Source: a virus. Taken from it: DNA of 32,927 nt. The stretch covers positions 1-32,927 of IMG/VR virus record IMGVR_UViG_3300045988_149366. One strand, 5' to 3'. Below, one piece after another: positions 120-29,605 of this stretch. Within the stretch, counting starts at the first letter, position 1; each line of letters begins with the position of its first letter. The translations under genes and the position numbers were made by a program. The notes beneath the pieces are model-generated. The model was not told where the DNA came from. It saw only the letters and a list, made by a program, of their open reading frames with translations, and made no database searches.

Positions 120-413
120 TTGACGCGCGTTGATCTTCAGACATTCGACTGGGATCAACTACCAGCCACGGAAAACCAAAACGCTTCTGCGCAAACTCGA
201 ATGGATTCTTCCTCCATTCACGTTTCTGCAAAACCATCCACCACGGCGGGCGCGGAAATGGACACATTTCAACTACCGGCGACAAGAATTTCCTTCGTCT
301 TCGATAACGCTCCAATCTCAGTGGAGGAAAAACATAAGGAACATTCTCCAAATGAAAATGAACACCCTGAGCTAAATGGCCTCGACTACGGACAGGAGGA
401 TCTTTCCAAATGA
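1..413 (+). CDS. small membrane-anchored protein; junction-spanning gene whose true start is GTG 32784 (5' end cut by linearisation)
   Basis: Track ORF 21..413. The frame stays open to the window edge and, through the terminal repeat, back to GTG 32784. Clean hydrophobic helix VVVFFVLGLLTGVLISMLAAVF followed by a polar/acidic tail with an internal TF..QLPAT repeat. Confidence 0.6.
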   Translation, partial: FESVWPVSVVVFFVLGLLTGVLISMLAAVFAQARTREKNLTRVDLQTFDWDQLPATENQNASAQTRMDSSSIHVSAKPSTTAGAEMDTFQLPATRISFVFDNAPISVEEKHKEHSPNENEHPELNGLDYGQEDLSK

Positions 414-834
414 GCAGGCCAGATAAAGGAAACTCAATCTCATCTGGATTGTCAAGCCACACAGCTAACCCGATTTCATCACCAGGACGAACAGCAGGCA
501 GAACTGCCGGCGTAATCCCTGTAGAAGAATGCGAATATGGCCTAAAAAACAGTGCCTTGCATTTGAAAAATGGGAAATATTCCAGCATATACACTGCGCC
601 GTCCCCTGAATTCACAAAGTGTATGACTAGATCTGGATTCGGGGTGTTGGGAGCGTTAAAAAGACCACGCAGTTTTTCTGGGTTAATTCGGATCGTTCCA
701 TCTAGTACTAAGTGTGCTTTCGGGCGGCGCATCCATGTCCAAAAGAATGAAAATACTCCACCTGATAGGGAGATAAGTGCCGCTATTAGTGAAGCGATTG
801 CCGCAATCCATGCCGCGTCGTTGAGCCAGCTCAT
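1..834 (-). CDS. reverse-strand membrane-anchored protein B (TM helix + beta-rich domain); absent from the ORF track because it runs off the window edge; stop is TGA at complement 32803..32805 across the junction
   Basis: Hand translation: the complement frame has no TTA/CTA/TCA in phase from 915 down to 1. ATG at 834 (GGAG just upstream); alternative in-frame ATGs at 858 and 864. N-terminus MSWLNDAAWIAAIASLIAALISLSGGVFSFFWTWM (TM), then DLVIHFVNSGDGAVYMLEYF...VRPGDEIGLAVWL. The distal ~140 codons are Arg-rich and antisense to gene 32784..413, so the real C-terminus is uncertain. Confidence 0.5.
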   Translation of the reverse strand, partial: MSWLNDAAWIAAIASLIAALISLSGGVFSFFWTWMRRPKAHLVLDGTIRINPEKLRGLFNAPNTPNPDLVIHFVNSGDGAVYMLEYFPFFKCKALFFRPYSHSSTGITPAVLPAVRPGDEIGLAVWLDNPDEIEFPLSGLLIWKDPPVRSRGHLAQGVHFHLENVPYVFPPLRLERYRRRRKFLSPVVEMCPFPRPPWWMVLQKREWRKNPFEFAQKRFGFPWLVVDPSRMSEDQRASSFFHAFAPERKQQPASRSERPSTSRGRKRRRRSRAKRTRK

Positions 835-915
835 GGTCTCCACAGTACATGGAGACATGCGCATTTCGGATGGGAGCGTGTGATGAATACGCCAAACACC
901 GATCCGACTGTCCAG

Positions 916-5281: not shown

Positions 5282-6063
5282 TCACCCCAACCGAGGCGTT
5301 CAAAGTCCTCAAAGTCGCCAAAGCGCTGAGGCTCATCCGAGAGATCGGCACCGGGGACGCAGAAGCATGGGCACACGCGGCTGCCAGGCTTATCCCTCAC
5401 GCCACGCTAGACAGCTTGGTTGACGCGGTCGAGCGCCTGGCAACCAGCCCACGCAAGCGCGGCGGGGACATCACGCTAGGCGACTTAGTGGAAGCAGCCC
5501 AATTCACCGACGCAGAACGATCCCAGCGCATCAACGAACACATCGCCACGCACGGAAGATTCACCGGCGACGGAATCACCGACCCCGCCAAGTGGCGCGT
5601 CGCGCTAGTCGCGTGGACCGACGCTATCGGCAGTGGTGCGAGCGGTGAGGAAGCGGAACAGGCGGCGTACAGGAGCGTGGGAATGGCTGTGCCGAGGCGT
5701 GACCGTCTTGTGCAAGACCCCGGCAAGATACGCAACCTCATTGAGAGCGCTAAACGAAACATCGCCGTTAACAGGGCTAGCACGCCGCCTGACAGGCAAA
5801 CAGGCAGCGACAGTACAAAAACCCGTAAGGGACAGGGCGTGAAACACGCTCAGAAAGGACGACAAGCATCATGCGACACATACTCAAAATCGAAGAAAAA
5901 TGGTTCGAGCGGATCCACGCAGGACAAAAAACCAGCGAACTCCGATTCAACGACCGCGACTACCAGACCGATGACACCATCATCTTCCAACCGGTCAACA
6001 GTGACGGCAACGTGCTCATCAAGCCCTACGACCTGCCGACCTACGAGATCACGCACGTACTGA
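5278..6063 (+). CDS. hypothetical protein (3' end uncertain; formal ORF overlaps the next gene by 193 nt)
   Basis: ATG 5278 overlaps the upstream TGA (ATGA), in frame with track ORF 5203..6063. The first ~195 aa look protein-like; the last ~65 aa are Ser/Thr-rich and overlap 5871..6131. Confidence 0.5.
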   Translation: MITPTEAFKVLKVAKALRLIREIGTGDAEAWAHAAARLIPHATLDSLVDAVERLATSPRKRGGDITLGDLVEAAQFTDAERSQRINEHIATHGRFTGDGITDPAKWRVALVAWTDAIGSGASGEEAEQAAYRSVGMAVPRRDRLVQDPGKIRNLIESAKRNIAVNRASTPPDRQTGSDSTKTRKGQGVKHAQKGRQASCDTYSKSKKNGSSGSTQDKKPANSDSTTATTRPMTPSSSNRSTVTATCSSSPTTCRPTRSRTY

Positions 6064-13101: not shown

Positions 13102-14367
13102 TTGGAGATTCCCAGTAATTTACAGCAGGAACTCGACCGGCTCTGGGCAAAATACCAGCAGGACCTCGACGCGATCACAGAGTACGCGTGCGGCCTCGTC
13201 GAGGAGGTTGCCGGAAACATTGATGACACGCTAGAAGTGATCAAGGACTACACATCCGTAGCGTCACAGGCAGCTAATGAGTATTACGACGCTGTGCGAA
13301 CCGTGTGGGGAAAAGCGGGCGTTGACCTGCCTGCTTTCAAGCACGACAATCTGATCGACCCGAGGCGGGCTCTGTGGCAGGTTCAAGGCGGCTTCTCAAA
13401 CACCGACTTTAATGGCCTGACCTACAAGCAGGTTATTAGTGGCGAGGCGCACTCGGGGATGACGATTTGGGATCTGCTTCCCGACATTACGAATGTTGAT
13501 ACTGCGCAGCAGCTTGTGGCCGACATGATTCATTCCGTTACACGCCTGACGACTCAGCGGAACATGCGCCTGGATCCGACCAGCCCGAGATGGGCGAGGG
13601 TACCGAGTGGCGAGACGTGCGAGTTCTGCCTGATGCTCGCGTCGAGAGGGTTTGCGTATACCAGTGAGAAAACGGCTGGGCGGGAAATGCAGTATCACTC
13701 GGATTGTGATTGCAGGATCGTTCCATCGTGGGGAAAGCAAACTCTCAAGGGATACGATCCTGACGGCTTGTATGCGCGGTATAAAGCGTGCGCGGACACT
13801 GTTGCGCCTATGACGACGCGTGAACGGTACGACGCGTATAAGAAGACGCTGGCCGCCAGGGGCGGTGAGGAGCTTCGTGACTATGAGTCGTGGAAATGCA
13901 GTATCGAGCTTGCTGAGATGCGTTGGCGTGATCGGCACTGGCTCAACACCGGTGAGCTACCAGAAATCACGTTCGCGTCACCGGGGGTCGAGCAGGAGAT
14001 TCTTAAAGAACGTCCGCATGAGCTACGAACAGCCCAACGATTAAGGCTATGTGGCGTTCAGTGTCACTTCATCGAGGACGAACTGCATATTCGACGTGGA
14101 AATGAAACAGTAACTGTCGGATTATCTGATCTTGCTGGCGGTATCGAGCTAAAAACCTTACTTAAAGCGGGTTCCGCGAACACGATTGAATCCCACTTGC
14201 GTTCACTGAGAACGAAGAGCGATTGCCGGCGTGTCATATTTGATAACCACGAAAATGACCAAATGGACGATGCTTCTCTCATCGACATACTCACGCGGTC
14301 AAAACGATTTGGCAGAGGAAGCGTTTATGTCCTTACCGGGACAGAAAGGCTCATGAAAGTACGATAG
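13102..14367 (+). CDS. MuF / SPP1 gp7-like head morphogenesis protein fused to a C-terminal PD-(D/E)XK-like nuclease (toxin-like) module
   Basis: The core RWARVPSGETCEFCLMLASRGFAYTSE...YHSDCDCRIVP is the MuF-like minor-capsid signature. Residues ~295-421 (PHELRTAQRL...GLSDLAGGIELKTL...RRVIFDN) form an extra module with a D-x5-E-x-K motif in visibly AT-richer DNA. Confidence 0.75.
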   Translation: MEIPSNLQQELDRLWAKYQQDLDAITEYACGLVEEVAGNIDDTLEVIKDYTSVASQAANEYYDAVRTVWGKAGVDLPAFKHDNLIDPRRALWQVQGGFSNTDFNGLTYKQVISGEAHSGMTIWDLLPDITNVDTAQQLVADMIHSVTRLTTQRNMRLDPTSPRWARVPSGETCEFCLMLASRGFAYTSEKTAGREMQYHSDCDCRIVPSWGKQTLKGYDPDGLYARYKACADTVAPMTTRERYDAYKKTLAARGGEELRDYESWKCSIELAEMRWRDRHWLNTGELPEITFASPGVEQEILKERPHELRTAQRLRLCGVQCHFIEDELHIRRGNETVTVGLSDLAGGIELKTLLKAGSANTIESHLRSLRTKSDCRRVIFDNHENDQMDDASLIDILTRSKRFGRGSVYVLTGTERLMKVR

Positions 14368-14443
14368 GCGTTCAACATGTCACCCTACAGTGTCACACTG
14401 AACGCCTAACACCTCGATTATATCACTTGATCGCTCGACTATG

Positions 14444-14473
14444 CCACCCCCCCTTCAGGTTGGGTGGTTTTTT
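14444..14473 (+). terminator. rho-independent terminator-like hairpin + T6 between the MuF-fusion gene and the scaffold gene
   Basis: CCACCC (14444-14449) pairs with GGGTGG (14462-14467), followed by TTTTTT (14468-14473). It is preceded by a second inverted repeat, GGCGTTCA (14367) / TGAACGCC (14399). Confidence 0.5.
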
Positions 14474-14512
14474 ATGCCCCGCAACCCGCACTCCCATAGT
14501 GATTGGAGGAAC

Positions 14513-15097
14513 ATGTTCACGAGATTAGAAATGAACAGGCATCGAAACCTGGTATTTGCACTGCCGGACTCGCCGCAAGGCGGCAGCGACAAGAACGCAG
14601 CCGACATTAGCGGCGAAACCGGTCAGCCTTCTCAGCCAAGCGAAAGCAAGGAAGATGCGACCAAGGCGGAAGAGACGGCTGCCGACTCTGACAGTGAAAC
14701 CGCTCAAGCACCAGAAGCTGACGAGCCCGAAGACGGCGCGAATGAACCGCGCGAGCAGGCCACAGAAACCACTCCCGAACAGGCAGTCGACTACCAGGCC
14801 CTGCAGGACAAGAACAGTGCGCTCGCGGAGGAAGTCGAGCAGTTGAAAGCGCAGATCGCGCGGTTCGAGACCGAACACCAGTGCGCCGCGTGGCGCGCGG
14901 AAATCTCCAAAGAAACCGGCGTTCCCGCTGAGGCGTTACGCGGGGGAACGCGCGAGGAAATCGAAGCGCACGCCAAGGTGCTCGCTGAACTCCTCAAACC
15001 ACGACCAGTTGTACGCGGCGCAGGCTCTCAGCCGGAGTCCCCGCGTCGAAGTGTGGAACTGGAAACCGCTAACCGCCTACTGGGTATTAACAATTAG
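14513..15097 (+). CDS. capsid scaffolding protein
   Basis: Acidic Glu/Asp/Ala/Thr-rich N-half, coiled coil (ALQDKNSALAEEVEQLKAQIARFE) and a position directly before the major capsid gene. Start uncertain: ATG 14513 (GGAGGA only 2 nt upstream) or 14531; the track start at 14441 lies inside the terminator. Confidence 0.7.
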   Translation: MFTRLEMNRHRNLVFALPDSPQGGSDKNAADISGETGQPSQPSESKEDATKAEETAADSDSETAQAPEADEPEDGANEPREQATETTPEQAVDYQALQDKNSALAEEVEQLKAQIARFETEHQCAAWRAEISKETGVPAEALRGGTREEIEAHAKVLAELLKPRPVVRGAGSQPESPRRSVELETANRLLGINN

Positions 15098-15111: not shown

Positions 15112-16011
15112 ATGGCACTGACAACAAGCAAGATCGCCCTCCCCAAGGAGGTTGTCGCTTCTATTGCGACAAAGACTAAGGACGATTCCGTCATCGCGAA
15201 ACTCTCCCCTTCCGAACCTCAGCTGTTTGCTGACAAGGAATACCTCGTGTTCAACGGGGCGTCTGAAGCGGAGATTGTTTCCGAGGGCGCAAAGAAAGGC
15301 TCTTACGAGCAGGAACTGTCCACTGTTGCCGCGAAGCGTCACAAGCTCGTGACGACCACTCGCGTGACCGACGAGCTTAAGTGGGCTGACGAGGACGATC
15401 GCCTGGAGATCATCTCGAAGATCCAGGAAGACCAGTCAAAGGCCATTGGCCGCGCCCTGGACTACATCGTTTTCCACGCGTTCAACCCCAAGCCCAAGAC
15501 CCCGATTGACGGTGCGACAGGCCTGGCAACATCCGGCGTGCAGGTGACGTCTTCAGGCAAGCCGGTCAATGACATTGACCTTTTGGCAGACGCAGTGGTT
15601 GACGAGTACGACATTAACGGCGTGGCCTTGTCGAAGACGTGGGCGTCAATGCTGCGCAAAGAACGAGTCGCAGCCACTGGCCAGCGCTTGTTCCCTGAGA
15701 TTCCGCTTAACCTGAATGCCGGGTATTTGGATTCGATTCCTGCAGCCACGTCAGGCACTGTGAACGGTCGCCTGATCACTCCCGAGACCGGCGTGCTGGC
15801 AATCATGGGTGACTTCAACATGATCCGCTGGGGTTTGGTGCGCGACGTGTACTCCGAGATCATCGAATACGGTGATCCTGACTCCACGGGCATGGACCTG
15901 AAGGGCTACAACCAGATCGCCTATCGCACTGAATGCGTGCTGACGACCGCTGTTGTTGACCCGCATGCGTTTGCAGTGCTCAAGGCCAAGGCGTCGGGCG
16001 CGCGCGGCTGA
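15112..16011 (+). CDS. major capsid protein
   Basis: 299 aa, AAAGGA RBS, follows the scaffold gene. Composition is typical of an actinophage major capsid protein. Confidence 0.8.
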   Translation: MALTTSKIALPKEVVASIATKTKDDSVIAKLSPSEPQLFADKEYLVFNGASEAEIVSEGAKKGSYEQELSTVAAKRHKLVTTTRVTDELKWADEDDRLEIISKIQEDQSKAIGRALDYIVFHAFNPKPKTPIDGATGLATSGVQVTSSGKPVNDIDLLADAVVDEYDINGVALSKTWASMLRKERVAATGQRLFPEIPLNLNAGYLDSIPAATSGTVNGRLITPETGVLAIMGDFNMIRWGLVRDVYSEIIEYGDPDSTGMDLKGYNQIAYRTECVLTTAVVDPHAFAVLKAKASGARG

Positions 16012-27108: not shown

Positions 27109-27288
27109 TTAGTGCAGGTCGGTTCGCGCTCCACGCCCTGGACGGTTCGCCTGCCATCGGTCGATCGTTTCTGGCAGCCAGCCGCGTGCCGACCCAGTGC
27201 CTTCACCGATGAGTGCGTCCGGCGGGGGCGTCAGGCCTTTAGCGACGTATGACTGCCATGTTCCAGGAGCGATGCAGGCAGCGCCTAC
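27109..27288 (-). pseudogene. start-less C-terminal fragment of an excisionase/AlpA-like HTH gene abutting the integrase 3' end
   Basis: Hand translation of the complement: VGAACIAPGTWQSYVAKGLTPPPDALIGEGTGSARGWLPETIDRWQANRPGRGARTDLH*. It is bounded upstream by TAA (27289-27291) and has no in-frame ATG/GTG/TTG. The W...W...RPGRG pattern resembles actinobacterial HTH_17 proteins. Confidence 0.4.
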
Positions 27289-28457
27289 TTATCCAGCTTT
27301 TCCACCATCCTGTCCACAGCCGACGCCACACGATCAAAATCACTCAGCTGATATTTCAGCACGGTCTCGATCTGTGTATGCCCAGGCAGATCCATCAGCT
27401 CCTTGAGCGACGCGCCCGCTCGGCCGAGATTGGTCAGGCACGTGTGCTTCAGGTCGTACAGCTCTGCATCTTGCAGGCCGATCGCGTCCAGTGCTTTCCT
27501 CACGCGGCCGCTCACATGCTTGTCCGACGCCGGTTCGCTGAGATCAGTGGGCGACGGGAAAACCCACTCGTTTTCATTCAGATCTTCGATGAGCAGTGTG
27601 AGCACGTCAATCAGGGGAGCGGGCAGCGGTGCCCATCTGCCGCGCCGCGTCTTCGTCGGCCCCTCCACAGTCTCACCGTTCTCCCCACGCTGCATCCCAC
27701 TGCCATACCAGATGCGCTTACGCTCCAGATCAATATCGCGCTTACGTAGAGCACGCGCCTCAGACGGCCTGCACGCCGTGTAATACACCAGAGCAGCTAT
27801 CCCCGCATACACGGGCATGTCGCACGCCTGCAGCTGTTCATACAGCGCCTCGTACTCCACATGCGTGAAATAGTGCTGCTGGCGCTTGTGGTCACTCTGA
27901 GTGACTTTCCCTCCGGCTTTGACGTGGCACGGACTGGCATCCAGATAGCCCTGCTCAACCGCACTGTTCATCATCGAGGACAGTACACGGTACGCGTTCG
28001 CCTTGGTCGACGCCGACATGCCTTGAGCAGCCTTCTTGTACCACTCGTCGACGTCGGCACGCGTGATGCTCACGAGCTTCTCCCCTCCCAATGCAGGGAG
28101 GACGTGGCGTTCGAGAGACGACTTGTAGGACCTGACCGTGTTCGCAGAGATGCGCCCATCTTTCTGCTTCGCGCGCCACTGATCGAGCCACGCCTCAGAA
28201 AACTCTCGGACCGTTATCGACTCAACTTCCTCACGAGCCGCTTCTGCTTCACGCTTCTGAGCTTTCTGCCTGGGAGACAGATACGTCCCCTCGACGAGCT
28301 CTTCCTTCATGTGCCAGGAGCGCTCGCGGGCTTTGGTCAGCGTCAGGAATCCGCCCTCGATGTATTTCTTGCCTCGGTATTGGACGATGGCTTTGTAGCG
28401 CGTGCCGCTGCCCGTGGAGTATTTGACAACTCTGCCTATTCCCGACCTACCAGCCAT
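27285..28457 (-). CDS. int: tyrosine integrase with N-terminal arm-binding (AP2-like) domain
   Basis: YKAIVQYRGKKYIEGGFLTLTKA arm-binding domain, TACRPSEARALR (Arg I), PTKTRRGRWAPLP (Lys), LPGHTQIETVLKY (His, Tyr). Box II reads YDLKHT instead of the usual HxLRHT. Confidence 0.9.
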   Translation of the reverse strand: MAGRSGIGRVVKYSTGSGTRYKAIVQYRGKKYIEGGFLTLTKARERSWHMKEELVEGTYLSPRQKAQKREAEAAREEVESITVREFSEAWLDQWRAKQKDGRISANTVRSYKSSLERHVLPALGGEKLVSITRADVDEWYKKAAQGMSASTKANAYRVLSSMMNSAVEQGYLDASPCHVKAGGKVTQSDHKRQQHYFTHVEYEALYEQLQACDMPVYAGIAALVYYTACRPSEARALRKRDIDLERKRIWYGSGMQRGENGETVEGPTKTRRGRWAPLPAPLIDVLTLLIEDLNENEWVFPSPTDLSEPASDKHVSGRVRKALDAIGLQDAELYDLKHTCLTNLGRAGASLKELMDLPGHTQIETVLKYQLSDFDRVASAVDRMVEKLDK

Positions 28458-28766: not shown

Positions 28767-29417
28767 GTGTATGTATTTATTGATGACTCCGGGGACGCAG
28801 GGGTGAAATTCAACCGTGGGTCTTCAACGCATCTTGTCATGGCTGCATGCGTCGTTCCCAACGACAGCGCGCTCATAGATATACAACGCGTCATGTCCAG
28901 AATGCCACGCCATCTTAAGACAGCAGGCGAATTCAAGCACTCCAAAATGAAAGCCAGCCATAAGGAAGAATTTTTCAGGGCACTCGAATCGATGAACTTC
29001 CATGTTCGTACGATTATCGTCGACAAGCGAGAATTAAAAAGCGGTTTCTTACGTGAACATGCCAACGAAATGAAGTCGTACTTCATCAAACAGCTTCTCA
29101 CTCACACATGGGGACAGATCGAGAACGCGCAGATACTCATTGATGGGGCAGACTTACGAGCTTTCGGTGTGAAAAGCACGCAGTACTTGCTCTCTCAAAT
29201 CAATAGTGAAGAAGTGCCAGTGGCCTTGGAAATCGCCTGCAGAGATTCCAAGGAAGAATTAGGTCTCCAGCTAGCTGACATGGTGGCAGGCACGATCATG
29301 TCTGGCATCACCAAAGGTATCAAAGTAACAAAAACAGAGTCCTGGCAACAGGTGCGCAAACGGGCCTACCATCCAAAAGGGAACTGGTGGATTTTCAGGG
29401 ATAAGAAAACGGCCTAG
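28767..29417 (+). CDS. DUF3800-family protein (accessory / moron gene)
   Basis: The N-terminal YVFIDDSGDAG and the later LQLADMVAG match the two DUF3800 signature motifs as I recall them (DES-like and QxxD). The DNA is AT-richer than its flanks, and the gene sits between attP and the immunity genes. Confidence 0.65.
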   Translation: MYVFIDDSGDAGVKFNRGSSTHLVMAACVVPNDSALIDIQRVMSRMPRHLKTAGEFKHSKMKASHKEEFFRALESMNFHVRTIIVDKRELKSGFLREHANEMKSYFIKQLLTHTWGQIENAQILIDGADLRAFGVKSTQYLLSQINSEEVPVALEIACRDSKEELGLQLADMVAGTIMSGITKGIKVTKTESWQQVRKRAYHPKGNWWIFRDKKTA

Positions 29418-29605
29418 CCGTGCGCTTGGCACGGCACGCCACCATACGGAGACTGTTCGACCGCTTTCATTACCGATTCTAGGATATCTCGTGAGCATCC
29501 GTCGAGGGGTTGCTTTTGGTTTCTTGTCCGCTCGTGTGAGCTCCTGTAGTGCTGGGTGGTACAGTTTTTGTGTCGGTGATAAGTCTTCCGGAGGTGGACT
29601 TCCCC

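Follow-up and report, generated by a model that had tools for sequence, protein, structure and literature searches.

What keeps a tRNase-like nuclease from harming the cell that produces it, or is it an effector of infection rather than a toxin? The question is raised by a head protein gene in a 32,927-nt virus sequence (IMG/VR record IMGVR_UViG_3300045988_149366, positions 1 to 32,927; hereafter the window), which a preliminary description had read as encoding a MuF-like protein with an added nuclease-like module and no adjacent immunity gene. MuF polymorphic toxins of temperate phages were described in 2017 (Jamet et al., 2017, BMC Biol 15:75; PMC5576092), and 89.4% of the toxin genes in that study are followed by an ORF of <150 aa, an arrangement that is frequent and not obligatory in the definition. 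The role proposed for such toxins is the poisoning of cells that a temperate phage enters, while kin are protected by the adjacent immunity gene. The tRNase domain of CdiA from B. pseudomallei 1026b (Bp1026b; cd13442) was already among the MuF toxin domains of that study (PMC5576092). MuF polymorphic toxins are known, this domain type included, and the window protein is a divergent member; what is new is that the immunity gene is lacking throughout one module family, together with a hairpin that is anchored on the toxin stop codon.

The head protein and its variable C-terminus

The gene (13102..14367, + strand, TTG start in the ORF list) encodes 421 aa. Residues 6-230 (13117..13791, +) match the Pfam VG15 domain (PF25310, E 4.7e-41), which we infer to be the equivalent of the MuF4 class of Jamet et al. 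PHROG matches of this domain (13257 and 193) are annotated as head maturation protease, and among the relatives of the 421-aa protein are mycobacteriophage proteins that carry the annotation MuF-like or capsid maturation protease. The end of an SPP1_portal gene lies 19 nt upstream, and an SPP1-type portal gene likewise precedes it in every one of 21 metagenome contigs that encode the identical protein. The next gene, after 145 nt, is not an immunity gene but the one for a 194-aa head scaffolding protein (14513..15097, +), which is the annotation of all four of its PHROG matches (9857, 1793, 2592 and 233), and the major capsid gene (15112-16011) follows directly. The window also encodes an integrase, an HTH protein and a protein of M78/ImmA-like type. 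The phage is a temperate siphophage and the gene product is its MuF4/VG15-type minor head protein; the VG15 match and the portal gene directly upstream thus bear out the MuF-type assignment made in the preliminary description, which had also placed the scaffold gene correctly.

The C-terminal extension of the protein is ~190 aa long. In homologues, the same N-terminal domain leads into EndoU, ADP-ribosyltransferase, glutamine deamidase (Gln_amidase) or PF18451 domains or into no extension, and a close relative in the same phage lineage (L156) is without any C-terminal extension. With unrelated toxin domains or none in its place among homologues, the module is an accessory, as had been supposed, and not a universal extension of MuF proteins. 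The locus resembles the toxins of Jamet et al. in having a gene with a MuF-superfamily N-terminal domain after the portal gene, in the head module and in a temperate phage context, and in a C-terminal extension of at least 100 aa whose toxin-type domain varies among homologues. Between VG15 and the module lies a linker (residues 231-289; 13792..13968, +) with the motif AEMRWRDxxWLxxG, in which E272, R276, D277, W280 and G284 are invariant or near-invariant in alignment A1. The linker is shared with PF18451-type fusions and not with the EndoU, ADP-ribosyltransferase and deamidase types; homologues of other toxin types align over no more than 42-56% of the query.

Fold, family and predicted active site of the module

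Residues ~290-421 (13969..14364, +) form a compact domain in the AlphaFold model (pLDDT 93.8), and the sole significant match of a Foldseek comparison with the PDB was 4g6v_A (E 1.3e-4, probability 1.0, TM 0.55/0.58), with the runner-up at E 0.025. The matched structure is the CdiA-CT of B. pseudomallei 1026b (PDB 4G6V; CdiA_C, PF18451), a Mg2+-dependent tRNase that cuts the acceptor stem of tRNA-Ala. Structural matches in BFVD were MuF-like, minor capsid and 'CDI toxin-like' phage proteins. With hhalign, the module family aligned with PF18451-positive MuF C-termini at 98.1% probability (E 1e-13); the latter match Pfam CdiA_C with a best E of 3.7e-17, and their profile aligns end to end with the 4G6V sequence, an alignment that is not significant (E 0.066). 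A Pfam scan of residues 295-421 gave no family at E <= 1, CdiA_C PF18451 included, and PDB sequence searches with the protein and with the family profile gave no significant match, so that the placement of the family comes from the transitive profile link and the predicted structure. On these two lines of evidence, from profile and model, the module belongs to the CdiA-CT(Bp1026b)/Pfam CdiA_C branch of the PD-(D/E)XK nucleases, in which it is divergent. The resemblance noticed in the preliminary description is upheld, and the profile and structure searches suggested there returned a CdiA-CT-type nuclease fold rather than a conserved structural extension.

The motif D343-x5-E349-x-K351, which had been pointed out earlier, is present. 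None of its three residues varies in an alignment of 12 family sequences, and E307, G318, D326, K372, D381, E384 and D390 are likewise invariant there. The published active site of the Bp1026b CdiA-CT is E187/D214/D223/K242 (PMC9086364). The predicted catalytic Glu, E307 (codon 14020..14022, +), is invariant in alignment A2 and corresponds to E187 in profile alignments, and E349-x-K351 aligns with the (D/E)xK of the PF18451-type C-termini, a motif that is itself aligned with D223 of 4G6V. D343 is the probable equivalent of D214, though the two fall into different columns in hhalign, and K351 the probable catalytic Lys. The codons for D343 to K351 (D-x5-E-x-K; 14128..14154, +) would encode the metal-binding and catalytic core, and the predicted catalytic set of E307, D343 and E349-x-K351 is complete.

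Beyond the predicted fold, the module shares with the 1026b CdiA-CT a C-terminal position on a delivery protein and the order of acidic residues, with a Glu on the first helix, then an Asp, then an Asp/Glu on the next strand. It differs in sequence (about 9% identity), in an extra beta-hairpin at residues 327-340 and in its canonical Lys of E-x-K, where the 1026b protein has a Tyr and K242 is supplied by the following helix. The delivery protein differs as well, a type V secretion filament for 1026b and, as proposed here, a phage head protein for the module, which also has no neighboring CdiI-type immunity partner.

Could the domain be what is left of a toxin cassette that has decayed and lost its catalytic activity? 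Pfam does not recognise the module, and the window cassette seems to have lost a tRNA-Tyr gene that is present in many relatives. However, aligned module sequences that are down to 24% identical still agree without exception in all four predicted catalytic residues and in six more positions, the family comprises 198 cluster representatives at E <= 1e-3, the predicted fold is very confident and the identical protein occurs on 21 contigs, all of which make decay very improbable.

Among the best 150 of these 198 representatives, the seven unusually long ones sampled are all MuF/VG15 or portal-MuF fusions, and the three short ones sampled (133-152 aa) have no Pfam domain and may be fragments. The remaining representatives are mostly 370-450 aa with the module at the end, which fits a MuF fusion when judged by length alone. 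The module family is common in phages of gut Actinobacteria (Bifidobacterium and Collinsella relatives). In GenBank phage records it was found as one unannotated fragment only, and a search of genome contigs matched only Arcanobacterium haemolyticum prophages, which carry a different toxin type. Pfam does not detect the family and cultured phage records do not contain it, so annotations of prophages will miss the module. One further type of C-terminus, represented by P0028, has little detectable homology to the nuclease family (hhalign probabilities of only 5% against alignment A2 and 30% against A3), and its AlphaFold model (pLDDT 55) is too poor for a fold search.

The PF18451 family at large occurs in CdiA, whereas the module subfamily, among those of the best 150 of 198 representatives with an identifiable N-terminal domain, is fused solely to MuF/VG15 or portal-MuF, with no other toxin-trafficking domain among the partners. 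This would fit a module that serves the phage's own cycle, as a nuclease or nucleic-acid binder acting on the DNA end at the portal or on phage transcripts, for which immunity would be needless; MuF-family proteins are portal-associated head components (PMC5512222), and the immunity gene is absent throughout the family (see below). We nevertheless consider such a role quite improbable, as many close relatives in the phage lineage lack the module, having no extension (L156) or unrelated toxin domains, which makes essential housekeeping unlikely, the closest structural relative is a bona fide toxin, and rapid mosaic diversification fits conflict better than housekeeping.

Immunity ORFs are missing across the module family

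In none of its frames does the 145-nt gap behind the toxin gene (14368-14512) contain an ORF of useful size. In about 90 loci, stop codon and capsid gene are 713-834 nt apart with the scaffold ORF alone in between, and there is no space for a dedicated immunity ORF in 64 non-redundant related loci. The ORFs that were called mechanically in 62 non-redundant loci (module type and P0028 type) overlap the hairpin, a tRNA or the scaffold gene, and neither antisense nor overprinted ORFs within the nuclease region are conserved across loci. Cassettes were compared by how far behind the stop codon the first ORF of at least 270 aa lies. This distance has a median of 744 nt for the module type and is 743-824 nt for the PF18451 type, compared with 919-1063 nt for the Gln_amidase type and 893-1175 nt for the EndoU-like type. 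The Gln_amidase, EndoU-like and ADP-ribosyltransferase cassettes mostly contain an ORF of 57-97 aa that starts -10 to +100 relative to the toxin stop. The immunity ORF is therefore missing across the whole nuclease-module family and not in the window phage alone, which extends what the preliminary description had said of this one locus. The result is a natural contrast, with one toxin-domain family systematically immunity-less and same-slot siblings of the same lineage mostly keeping the gene. Compared with the toxins of Jamet et al., the family is unlike in leaving no room for a small ORF in any of the about 90 loci, in a module too divergent for Pfam and in a conserved stop-anchored hairpin that belongs to the cassette.

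The region is also exchanged between phages, as had been proposed and as is seen directly in the DNA. Identity to the near-identical phages L092 and L093 is 93-100% before ~14000, falls to 76-81% at 13996-14055 and to 35-55% until ~14455, and is 100% from 14472 onward. Relative to these closest phages, the swap starts at ~14040-14070 (residues ~315-323), inside the nuclease domain, and ends at ~14450-14460, inside a terminator loop. The recently exchanged, AT-richer cassette (14040..14460, +) thus comprises the last ~100 nuclease codons and most of the intergenic region. The alignment to homologues with other toxin types stops at about residues 220-240. In place of the single breakpoint expected near residue 290, there are two nested borders, at ~220-240 and ~315-323. 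In another pair of loci (L018/L146), the variable segment stops precisely where a tRNA gene begins, at its first base. The module, the 3´ hairpin and a short promoter-like motif are a cassette that recombines among related phages at the MuF/scaffold junction. The AT-richness attributed to the module DNA was confirmed, with a GC content of 0.477 for 13984-14367 against a window mean of 0.575 (z = -2.5; 2.8% of equal-sized windows are equally low) and a GC3 of 0.44 against 0.66 in the N-terminal part. Elsewhere in the window, the low-GC3 orphan ORFs 21-413 and 410-883 have no family match.

These observations bear on whether the protein is a classical polymorphic toxin with a cognate immunity protein encoded elsewhere in the prophage or host, possibly by an accessory gene that is expressed in lysogeny and shields lysogens from the toxin of sibling virions. 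Sibling protection by prophage-encoded immunity was proposed by Jamet et al., in whose set about 10% of the MuF toxin genes are without a downstream small ORF (PMC5576092). The window has unassigned ORFs, including 21-413, 410-883 and those around the integrase and the DUF3800 region, and the toxin domain has diversified as a mosaic, with the C-terminus of one homologue (P0002) being half P0003-like and half window-like, a pattern typical of toxin-immunity arms races. However, about 20 window ORFs were scanned and no known immunity family was found among them. In same-slot sibling cassettes, the immunity ORF lies next to the toxin gene or overlaps it, which would make a separate location an exception, and the 62 non-redundant loci of the module and P0028 types have no room for a dedicated ORF. 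Moreover, with the cassette swapped as a unit, an unlinked partner gene would be lost at every swap. We regard immunity at a distance as unlikely. Of the three readings that the preliminary description had offered for the missing gene, a delivered effector not toxic to its producer is favored and immunity encoded elsewhere is less favored.

A tRNA-Tyr(GTA) gene directly follows the toxin gene in many relatives and can be identical in sequence even across cassette types; no tRNA gene was found in the window. This tRNA was considered as a cleavage-resistant 'tRNA immunity' and rejected because the same tRNA also lies behind Gln_amidase, EndoU-like and P0028-type cassettes.

The stop-anchored hairpin and the proposed role of the nuclease

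The inverted repeat noted earlier in the gap is a two-tier hairpin anchored on the TAG stop codon (14365..14408, +), with the outer stem GGCGTTCA/TGAACGCC and the inner stem TGTCACC/GTGTCAC in the MFE fold (z = -2.9). RNAalifold gave compensatory changes in 9 of 11 pairs, and 10 of 14 pairs are changed on both sides, a count that none of 500 shuffles attained and that was much lower in slid controls. The covariance model built for the hairpin (R1) has one match per locus, at the toxin stop codon, except in L093, where the match is weak and ~5 nt downstream; it found no copy of this hairpin family in 17 control loci, which have another C-terminal type or none. A stop-anchored hairpin was found in 49/50, 12/12 and 2/2 non-redundant loci for the three cassette types that lack an immunity ORF, and in 5/16 other non-redundant loci. 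A scan of IMG/VR with the inner-stem sequence found the full element at these nuclease-fusion genes only, and an Rfam search of the gap matched no family. The hairpin is conserved with compensatory base changes and travels with the cassette. It has no U-tract, and its inner stem is conserved beyond the needs of a generic terminator. A hairpin is also present, and an immunity ORF absent, at loci with the P0028-type C-terminus. An integron attC-like hairpin was considered and dropped, the 'GCCTAAC' core being in the wrong orientation and not conserved.

The co-occurrence of hairpin and missing immunity ORF, the location of the hairpin inside the exchanged cassette, its strong compensatory changes and its restriction to these genes would all be expected if a structured RNA 3´ of the stop codon were the counterpart of the immunity gene, encoded in cis and acting on the RNA nuclease as a decoy or inhibitor, or serving as its autoregulatory target, so that the producing cell comes to no harm. 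The same co-occurrence could, however, stem from simple linkage in a single cassette lineage, and the hairpin takes the position held in immunity-bearing cassettes by a canonical terminator, after which the same promoter-like motif follows, so that a role at the transcript end is simpler. In addition, the alleles of L093 and L012 have a different palindrome, and the types of base pairs do not tell the strand or whether the molecule is RNA or DNA. Type III toxin-antitoxin systems (ToxIN-like) rely on an RNA to neutralise an endoribonuclease, but only the idea of a structured RNA antidote is shared; the cassette has a single hairpin in place of a tandem array, its RNA is encoded 3´ of the nuclease, and the nuclease has a different fold. 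With no tandemly repeated antitoxin RNA in the window, assignment to these systems was not adopted. An RNA counterpart of immunity is, in our estimate, quite unlikely. The wider proposal that CdiA_C-like MuF modules are a class of their own, confined to phages, of RNA nucleases that are delivered by the virion and need no protein immunity, with the hairpin RNA as cis antidote, decoy or autoregulatory target, seems improbable; if true, a polymorphic toxin system would have an RNA, the hairpin, in the role of its immunity gene.

The explanation that we prefer, with a probability of about 0.5, is that the protein is an immunity-less, MuF-fused CdiA_C-like nuclease that is swapped as a cassette and serves as a virion-delivered effector. 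We infer its packaging, delivery and substrate, and the reason for the missing immunity, as follows. The MuF domain would carry the nuclease into the capsid, beside the portal, and the nuclease would exit with the DNA and act in the newly infected cell. There it may be a metal-dependent RNA nuclease, probably a tRNase, with the function of an early effector or toxin. MuF-fused enzymatic domains have been treated as injected effectors (PMC5512222; PMC5576092). Unlike sibling cassettes in the same slot, this module type would function without a dedicated neighboring immunity protein, and self-harm might be avoided if the nuclease is latent in the producing cell or if its target is irrelevant late in the lytic cycle. 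As sibling cassettes with the same late expression keep their immunity genes, late expression cannot wholly explain the missing immunity. The stop-anchored hairpin would most simply be the transcript-end structure of the cassette.

The proposed effector is like the virion-packaged effectors or 'polyvalent proteins' (Iyer et al., 2017, J Bacteriol 199:e00245-17), examples of which are T4 Alt and MuF-fused RNase domains, in combining an enzymatic domain on a head- or portal-associated protein with proposed co-injection with DNA and no need for an immunity gene. Those effectors are, by contrast, usually BECR-fold RNases, 2H phosphoesterases, ADP-ribosyltransferases and similar, and the study of Iyer et al. 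has no immunity-less CdiA_C-like PD-(D/E)XK MuF fusion with its own 3´ structured element.

Downstream of the hairpin, the terminator that had also been noted in the gap corresponds to an intrinsic-terminator-like stem-loop with the sequence GCCACCC...GGGTGG and T6 (14443..14473, +; stem at 14443-14468, T-run at 14468-14473), whose loop contains the right-hand border of the cassette. L092, L093 and L012 share this stem. A simple terminator scan did not call it, probably because its loop of ~12 nt is outside the 3-8 nt limit. A promoter-like motif, GATTATATCAC (14416..14426, +; family consensus ATTMTAYCAC), is in conserved columns of alignments A4 and A5, and in relatives a motif of this type lies 5-10 nt upstream of the tRNA-Tyr gene. 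A sigma-70 promoter scan of 14200-14700 gave zero sites. A second copy of the motif, TTTTATGCC (14470..14478, +), is found right after the terminator and upstream of the scaffold gene, and this arrangement recurs in unrelated cassette types (L096, L138, L139, L141 and L098).

A CdiA-CT-type nuclease domain at the end of a MuF head protein

The 421-aa MuF-type head protein is encoded at 13102-14367 (+), directly after the portal gene, and is followed by a 194-aa gene (14513-15097) matching PHROG head scaffolding families and then by the major capsid gene. Residues 6-230 form a VG15 domain (Pfam PF25310, E 4.7e-41), while no Pfam match was obtained for residues 295-421. The preliminary description held the C-terminal module to be AT-richer, and this is borne out by the composition: GC is 0.477 for the C-terminal coding region compared with 0.575 on average across the window (z = -2.5; just 2.8% of equal-sized windows reach a value this low), and GC3 is 0.44 compared with 0.66 for the N-terminal part. 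Database searches returned full-length relatives with 33-97% identity as well as many other proteins matching the N-terminal ~230 residues only, the latter carrying the Pfam toxin domains EndoU (PF14436), Gln_amidase (PF15644), ADPrib_exo_Tox (PF03496) and CdiA_C (PF18451).

We aligned 12 C-termini of the window's nuclease type and, separately, six PF18451-positive MuF C-termini. E307, G318, D326, D343, E349, K351, K372, D381, E384 and D390 are invariant among the 12, and the two alignments matched each other by hhalign (probability 98.1%, E 1e-13). An AlphaFold model built from the 12-sequence alignment had a pLDDT of 93.8, and Foldseek gave a single significant match in the PDB, the CdiA-CT toxin of B. 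pseudomallei 1026b (4g6v_A; E 1.3e-4, probability 1.0, TM 0.55/0.58; second-best E 0.025). The significant matches among predicted viral structures were phage proteins, including minor capsid proteins, a 'CDI toxin-like protein' and a 'capsid maturation protease and MuF-like fusion protein'. The 1026b toxin is a Mg2+-dependent member of the PD-(D/E)XK superfamily that cuts tRNA-Ala in the acceptor stem, with E187, D214, D223 and K242 as its active site (review, PMC9086364). The PF18451 profile aligned end to end with the 4G6V sequence in a weak match (E 0.066), in which its conserved Glu, Asp and (D/E)xK line up with E187, D214 and D223. Through the alignment of the two families, E307 is the equivalent of E187 and E349 that of D223; D343 probably corresponds to D214, although hhalign put the two in different columns. 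The 1026b toxin differs in having a Tyr in place of the canonical (D/E)xK lysine, K351, its K242 coming from the next helix. The D343-x5-E349-x-K351 motif and PD-(D/E)XK fold proposed from the sequence at first reading were therefore right, and the module is an intact, conserved nuclease domain of the CdiA-CT type. That a domain with these ten invariant residues is a dead remnant is very improbable, and a housekeeping nucleic-acid role for a domain whose one significant PDB match is a toxin also seems a poor prospect.

MuF polymorphic toxins as a class, even in combination with a 1026b-type domain, were published in 2017 (Jamet et al.); the protein is therefore a divergent member of that class, undetectable by Pfam. 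An exhaustive profile search found the domain in 198 cluster representatives at E <= 1e-3, and in most of the best 150 of these it lies at the C-terminus of ~370-450 aa proteins. Ten representatives, seven unusually long and three short, were scanned with Pfam: the long ones are VG15 fusions or, in one case, a portal-MuF-nuclease triple fusion (P0216, 867 aa), while the short ones had no Pfam domain. In another relative, P0171 (586 aa), the nuclease domain (residues 308-446) precedes a linker and one more domain of ~85 aa. GenBank phage records held the module in one unannotated fragment only, and the named relatives are from Bifidobacterium, Collinsella and Arcanobacterium.

Cassette exchange and the missing immunity gene

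DNA identity was profiled between the window and two related loci, L092 and L093, from the phages encoding the relatives P0005 and P0004. Identity is 93-100% up to ~14000, falls to 76-81% at 13996-14055 and to 35-55% (unalignable) from 14056 to ~14455, and is 100% from 14472, placing the right border of the exchanged segment inside the terminator loop. Another relative, P0002, is a mosaic, with a first half like that of P0003 and a second half identical to the window. Whole toxin types are exchanged just past the VG15 domain, at residues ~220-240, and alleles of the nuclease type within the nuclease domain, at residues ~315-323. On these sequence comparisons, exchange has two nested levels, toxin type and allele; the swapped cassette of the preliminary description thus stands, but its single border near residue 290 gives way to these two. 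Between L018 (nuclease type) and L146 (Gln_amidase type), identity restarts precisely with the first nucleotide of the tRNA gene that follows, and the cassette therefore comprises everything from the MuF core to that point.

A gap of 145 nt separates the toxin stop codon from the start codon of the scaffold gene. As first described, it holds no immunity gene: it consists of an inverted repeat that includes the TAG stop (14365-14408) and a terminator-like stem-loop with a T-run (14443-14473), and no usable ORF was found in any frame. Twenty-one contigs encode the identical protein, all with the same gap. We examined 80 IMG/VR loci with this C-terminus, three close relatives, and the loci of the relatives P0009, P0077, P0043, P0098 and P0108 (the last three PF18451-positive). 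In these loci, 713-834 nt separate the stop codon from the capsid gene, with the scaffold ORF alone in between. In contrast, among 80 control loci sharing the N-domain, those with a Gln_amidase, EndoU-like, ADP-ribosyltransferase or unclassified C-terminus mostly carry a 57-97 aa ORF that begins between -10 and +100 relative to the toxin stop, with a canonical terminator after it. A small downstream ORF has been reported at 89.4% of MuF toxin genes (Jamet et al.). The distance from the toxin stop to the first ORF of 270 aa or more has a median of 744 nt (702-913) for the nuclease type and is 743-824 nt for the PF18451 type and 638 nt where there is no extension, compared with 919-1063 nt for Gln_amidase, 893-1175 nt for EndoU-like and 821-932 nt for other types. 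Some nuclease-type loci contain mechanical ORFs, which overlap, in other frames, the hairpin, a tRNA gene or the scaffold gene; none was called by the source gene callers in the loci with calls available, and no conserved antisense or overprinted ORF was found. An adjacent immunity ORF is missing in every family member examined and its absence is a family trait. An immunity gene could lie unlinked elsewhere, which we regard as unlikely though worth keeping in mind; no known immunity family was found in the ~20 other window ORFs.

Two orphan ORFs at 21-413 and 410-883 (+), of 130 and 157 aa, have GC3 values of 0.51 and 0.44, low like the nuclease cassette. Neither matches Pfam or PHROG, and a hydrophobic segment lies at the N-terminus of one. 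Both may be accessory genes, for which an unlinked immunity function is conceivable.

MuF/gp7 proteins are portal-associated head components. We propose that the nuclease module would be ejected into the next host and would cut RNA there, probably tRNA, without needing a dedicated protein antidote. Possible reasons are that the domain stays latent before it is delivered, or that its target does not matter in the cell that makes it; late expression alone is no explanation, because sibling cassettes with the same timing keep their immunity genes. The systematic lack of an immunity gene in this domain type, as against the other control cassette types, appears undescribed. The finding does not reveal a new kind of system but raises a question that lends itself to a clean test.

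A hairpin at the toxin stop codon and a promoter-like motif downstream

In the nuclease-type loci, a two-tier hairpin lies directly at the stop codon, bases 2 and 3 of which are usually paired within the outer stem; the third base (TAA vs TAG) covaries with its pairing partner (U vs C). RNAalifold on nine diverse loci showed compensatory changes in 9/11 pairs. A covariance model had one match per locus, at the toxin stop, in 32/57 sources (in L093, a weak match ~5 nt downstream of the stop), with no match elsewhere in the 683 kb searched or in 17 control loci. In the alignment of these matches, 10/14 pairs had both-sided changes, compared with 4.6 +/- 1.2 in shuffles (0/500 reached 10) and 1-6 in slid controls. 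By one criterion, a stop-anchored hairpin was present in 49/50 non-redundant loci of the nuclease type, 12/12 of the type of the relative P0028 and 2/2 of the PF18451 type, compared with 5/16 other non-redundant loci. Scanning IMG/VR for the inner stem gave 64 matches, with the full element in 14, all already known nuclease-type loci, and Rfam had no match. Such a conserved hairpin travelling with the cassette appears undescribed; the literature searched yielded no description of it or of an immunity-less domain type.

The motif ATTMTAYCAC follows ~8-40 nt downstream of the hairpin. In the window, the short motif stands at 14416-14426 and 14470-14478 (ATTATATCAC, TTATGCC or TTATACC), with equivalent sites in most loci. 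The TTATGCC/TTATACC variant recurs past every terminator and also stands 5-10 nt before the tRNA or ~30 nt ahead of the scaffold ribosome-binding site, and the motif is common to phages whose proteins share only 30-45% identity. It reads as promoter-like and may be a late promoter element missed by the sigma-70 consensus scan. Immunity-bearing cassettes have the order immunity ORF, canonical terminator, motif. Because hairpin and motif stand where these have terminator and motif, the simplest reading of the hairpin is a transcript-end structure of the cassette. The covariation and confinement to the toxin stop might also suit an RNA antidote or regulator, which we consider improbable.

In the closest relatives, the intergenic region contains one or two copies of a ~45-nt GC-rich palindromic element (GGAGCCnCnCACGCACCACATGGGGTCGCGCACGnnGCTCC; L092 1600-1655, L093 11272-11325 and 11350-11400, L094 about 1925-1970, L012 6427-6480) that the window lacks. 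L012 and L093 have it immediately after the stop codon, where it replaces the hairpin. In L107, a locus of the P0028 type, the MuF toxin gene has an altered end from about 6350, and a different GC-rich sequence, possibly an insertion, stands where the hairpin and tRNA would be.

The tRNA-Tyr slot and genome layout

Many relatives carry a tRNA-Tyr(GTA) gene between the toxin and scaffold genes, whatever the toxin type (for example, L005 5412-5494, L013 3968-4050, L018 6495-6577 and L055 6494-6580; also L098, L147 and others). It follows 5/6 Gln_amidase, 4/5 EndoU-like, 10/12 P0028-type and 22/50 nuclease-type cassettes, and identical tRNA sequences are common to phages with different toxin types. 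A specific role as replacement for the target of a tRNA-Tyr-cutting toxin is ruled out by the control set, in which the same tRNA accompanies other toxins; the gene might help with codon supply or act against a host defence aimed at tRNA-Tyr. No tRNA gene is present in the window, which keeps the flanking motif and terminator in the order hairpin, motif, terminator, motif, a layout resembling that of a relative whose tRNA gene, between first motif and terminator, has been lost. Aberrant tRNA-like genes occupy the slot in L061 (6469-6554), L062 (6466-6549) and L008 (about 5415-5500): one has an 8-nt anticodon loop ('gtaa'), another is called tRNA-Glu(ctc) with odd geometry, and the third is an uncalled tRNA-Tyr-like sequence with the anticodon loop CCGTACA instead of CTGTAAA.

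Elsewhere in the window, a DUF3800-IX RNA (Rfam RF02968, 49.3 bits, above gathering) at 29400-29469 (-) adjoins the 3' end of a DUF3800 protein gene on the opposite strand (28767-29417, +), between the integrase and an M78/ImmA-like gene. Because the integrase (27285-28457, -) and lysogeny switch lie mid-window and early genes at both ends, the window resembles a complete, circularly permuted phage genome of ~33 kb, not an integrated prophage with host flanks.
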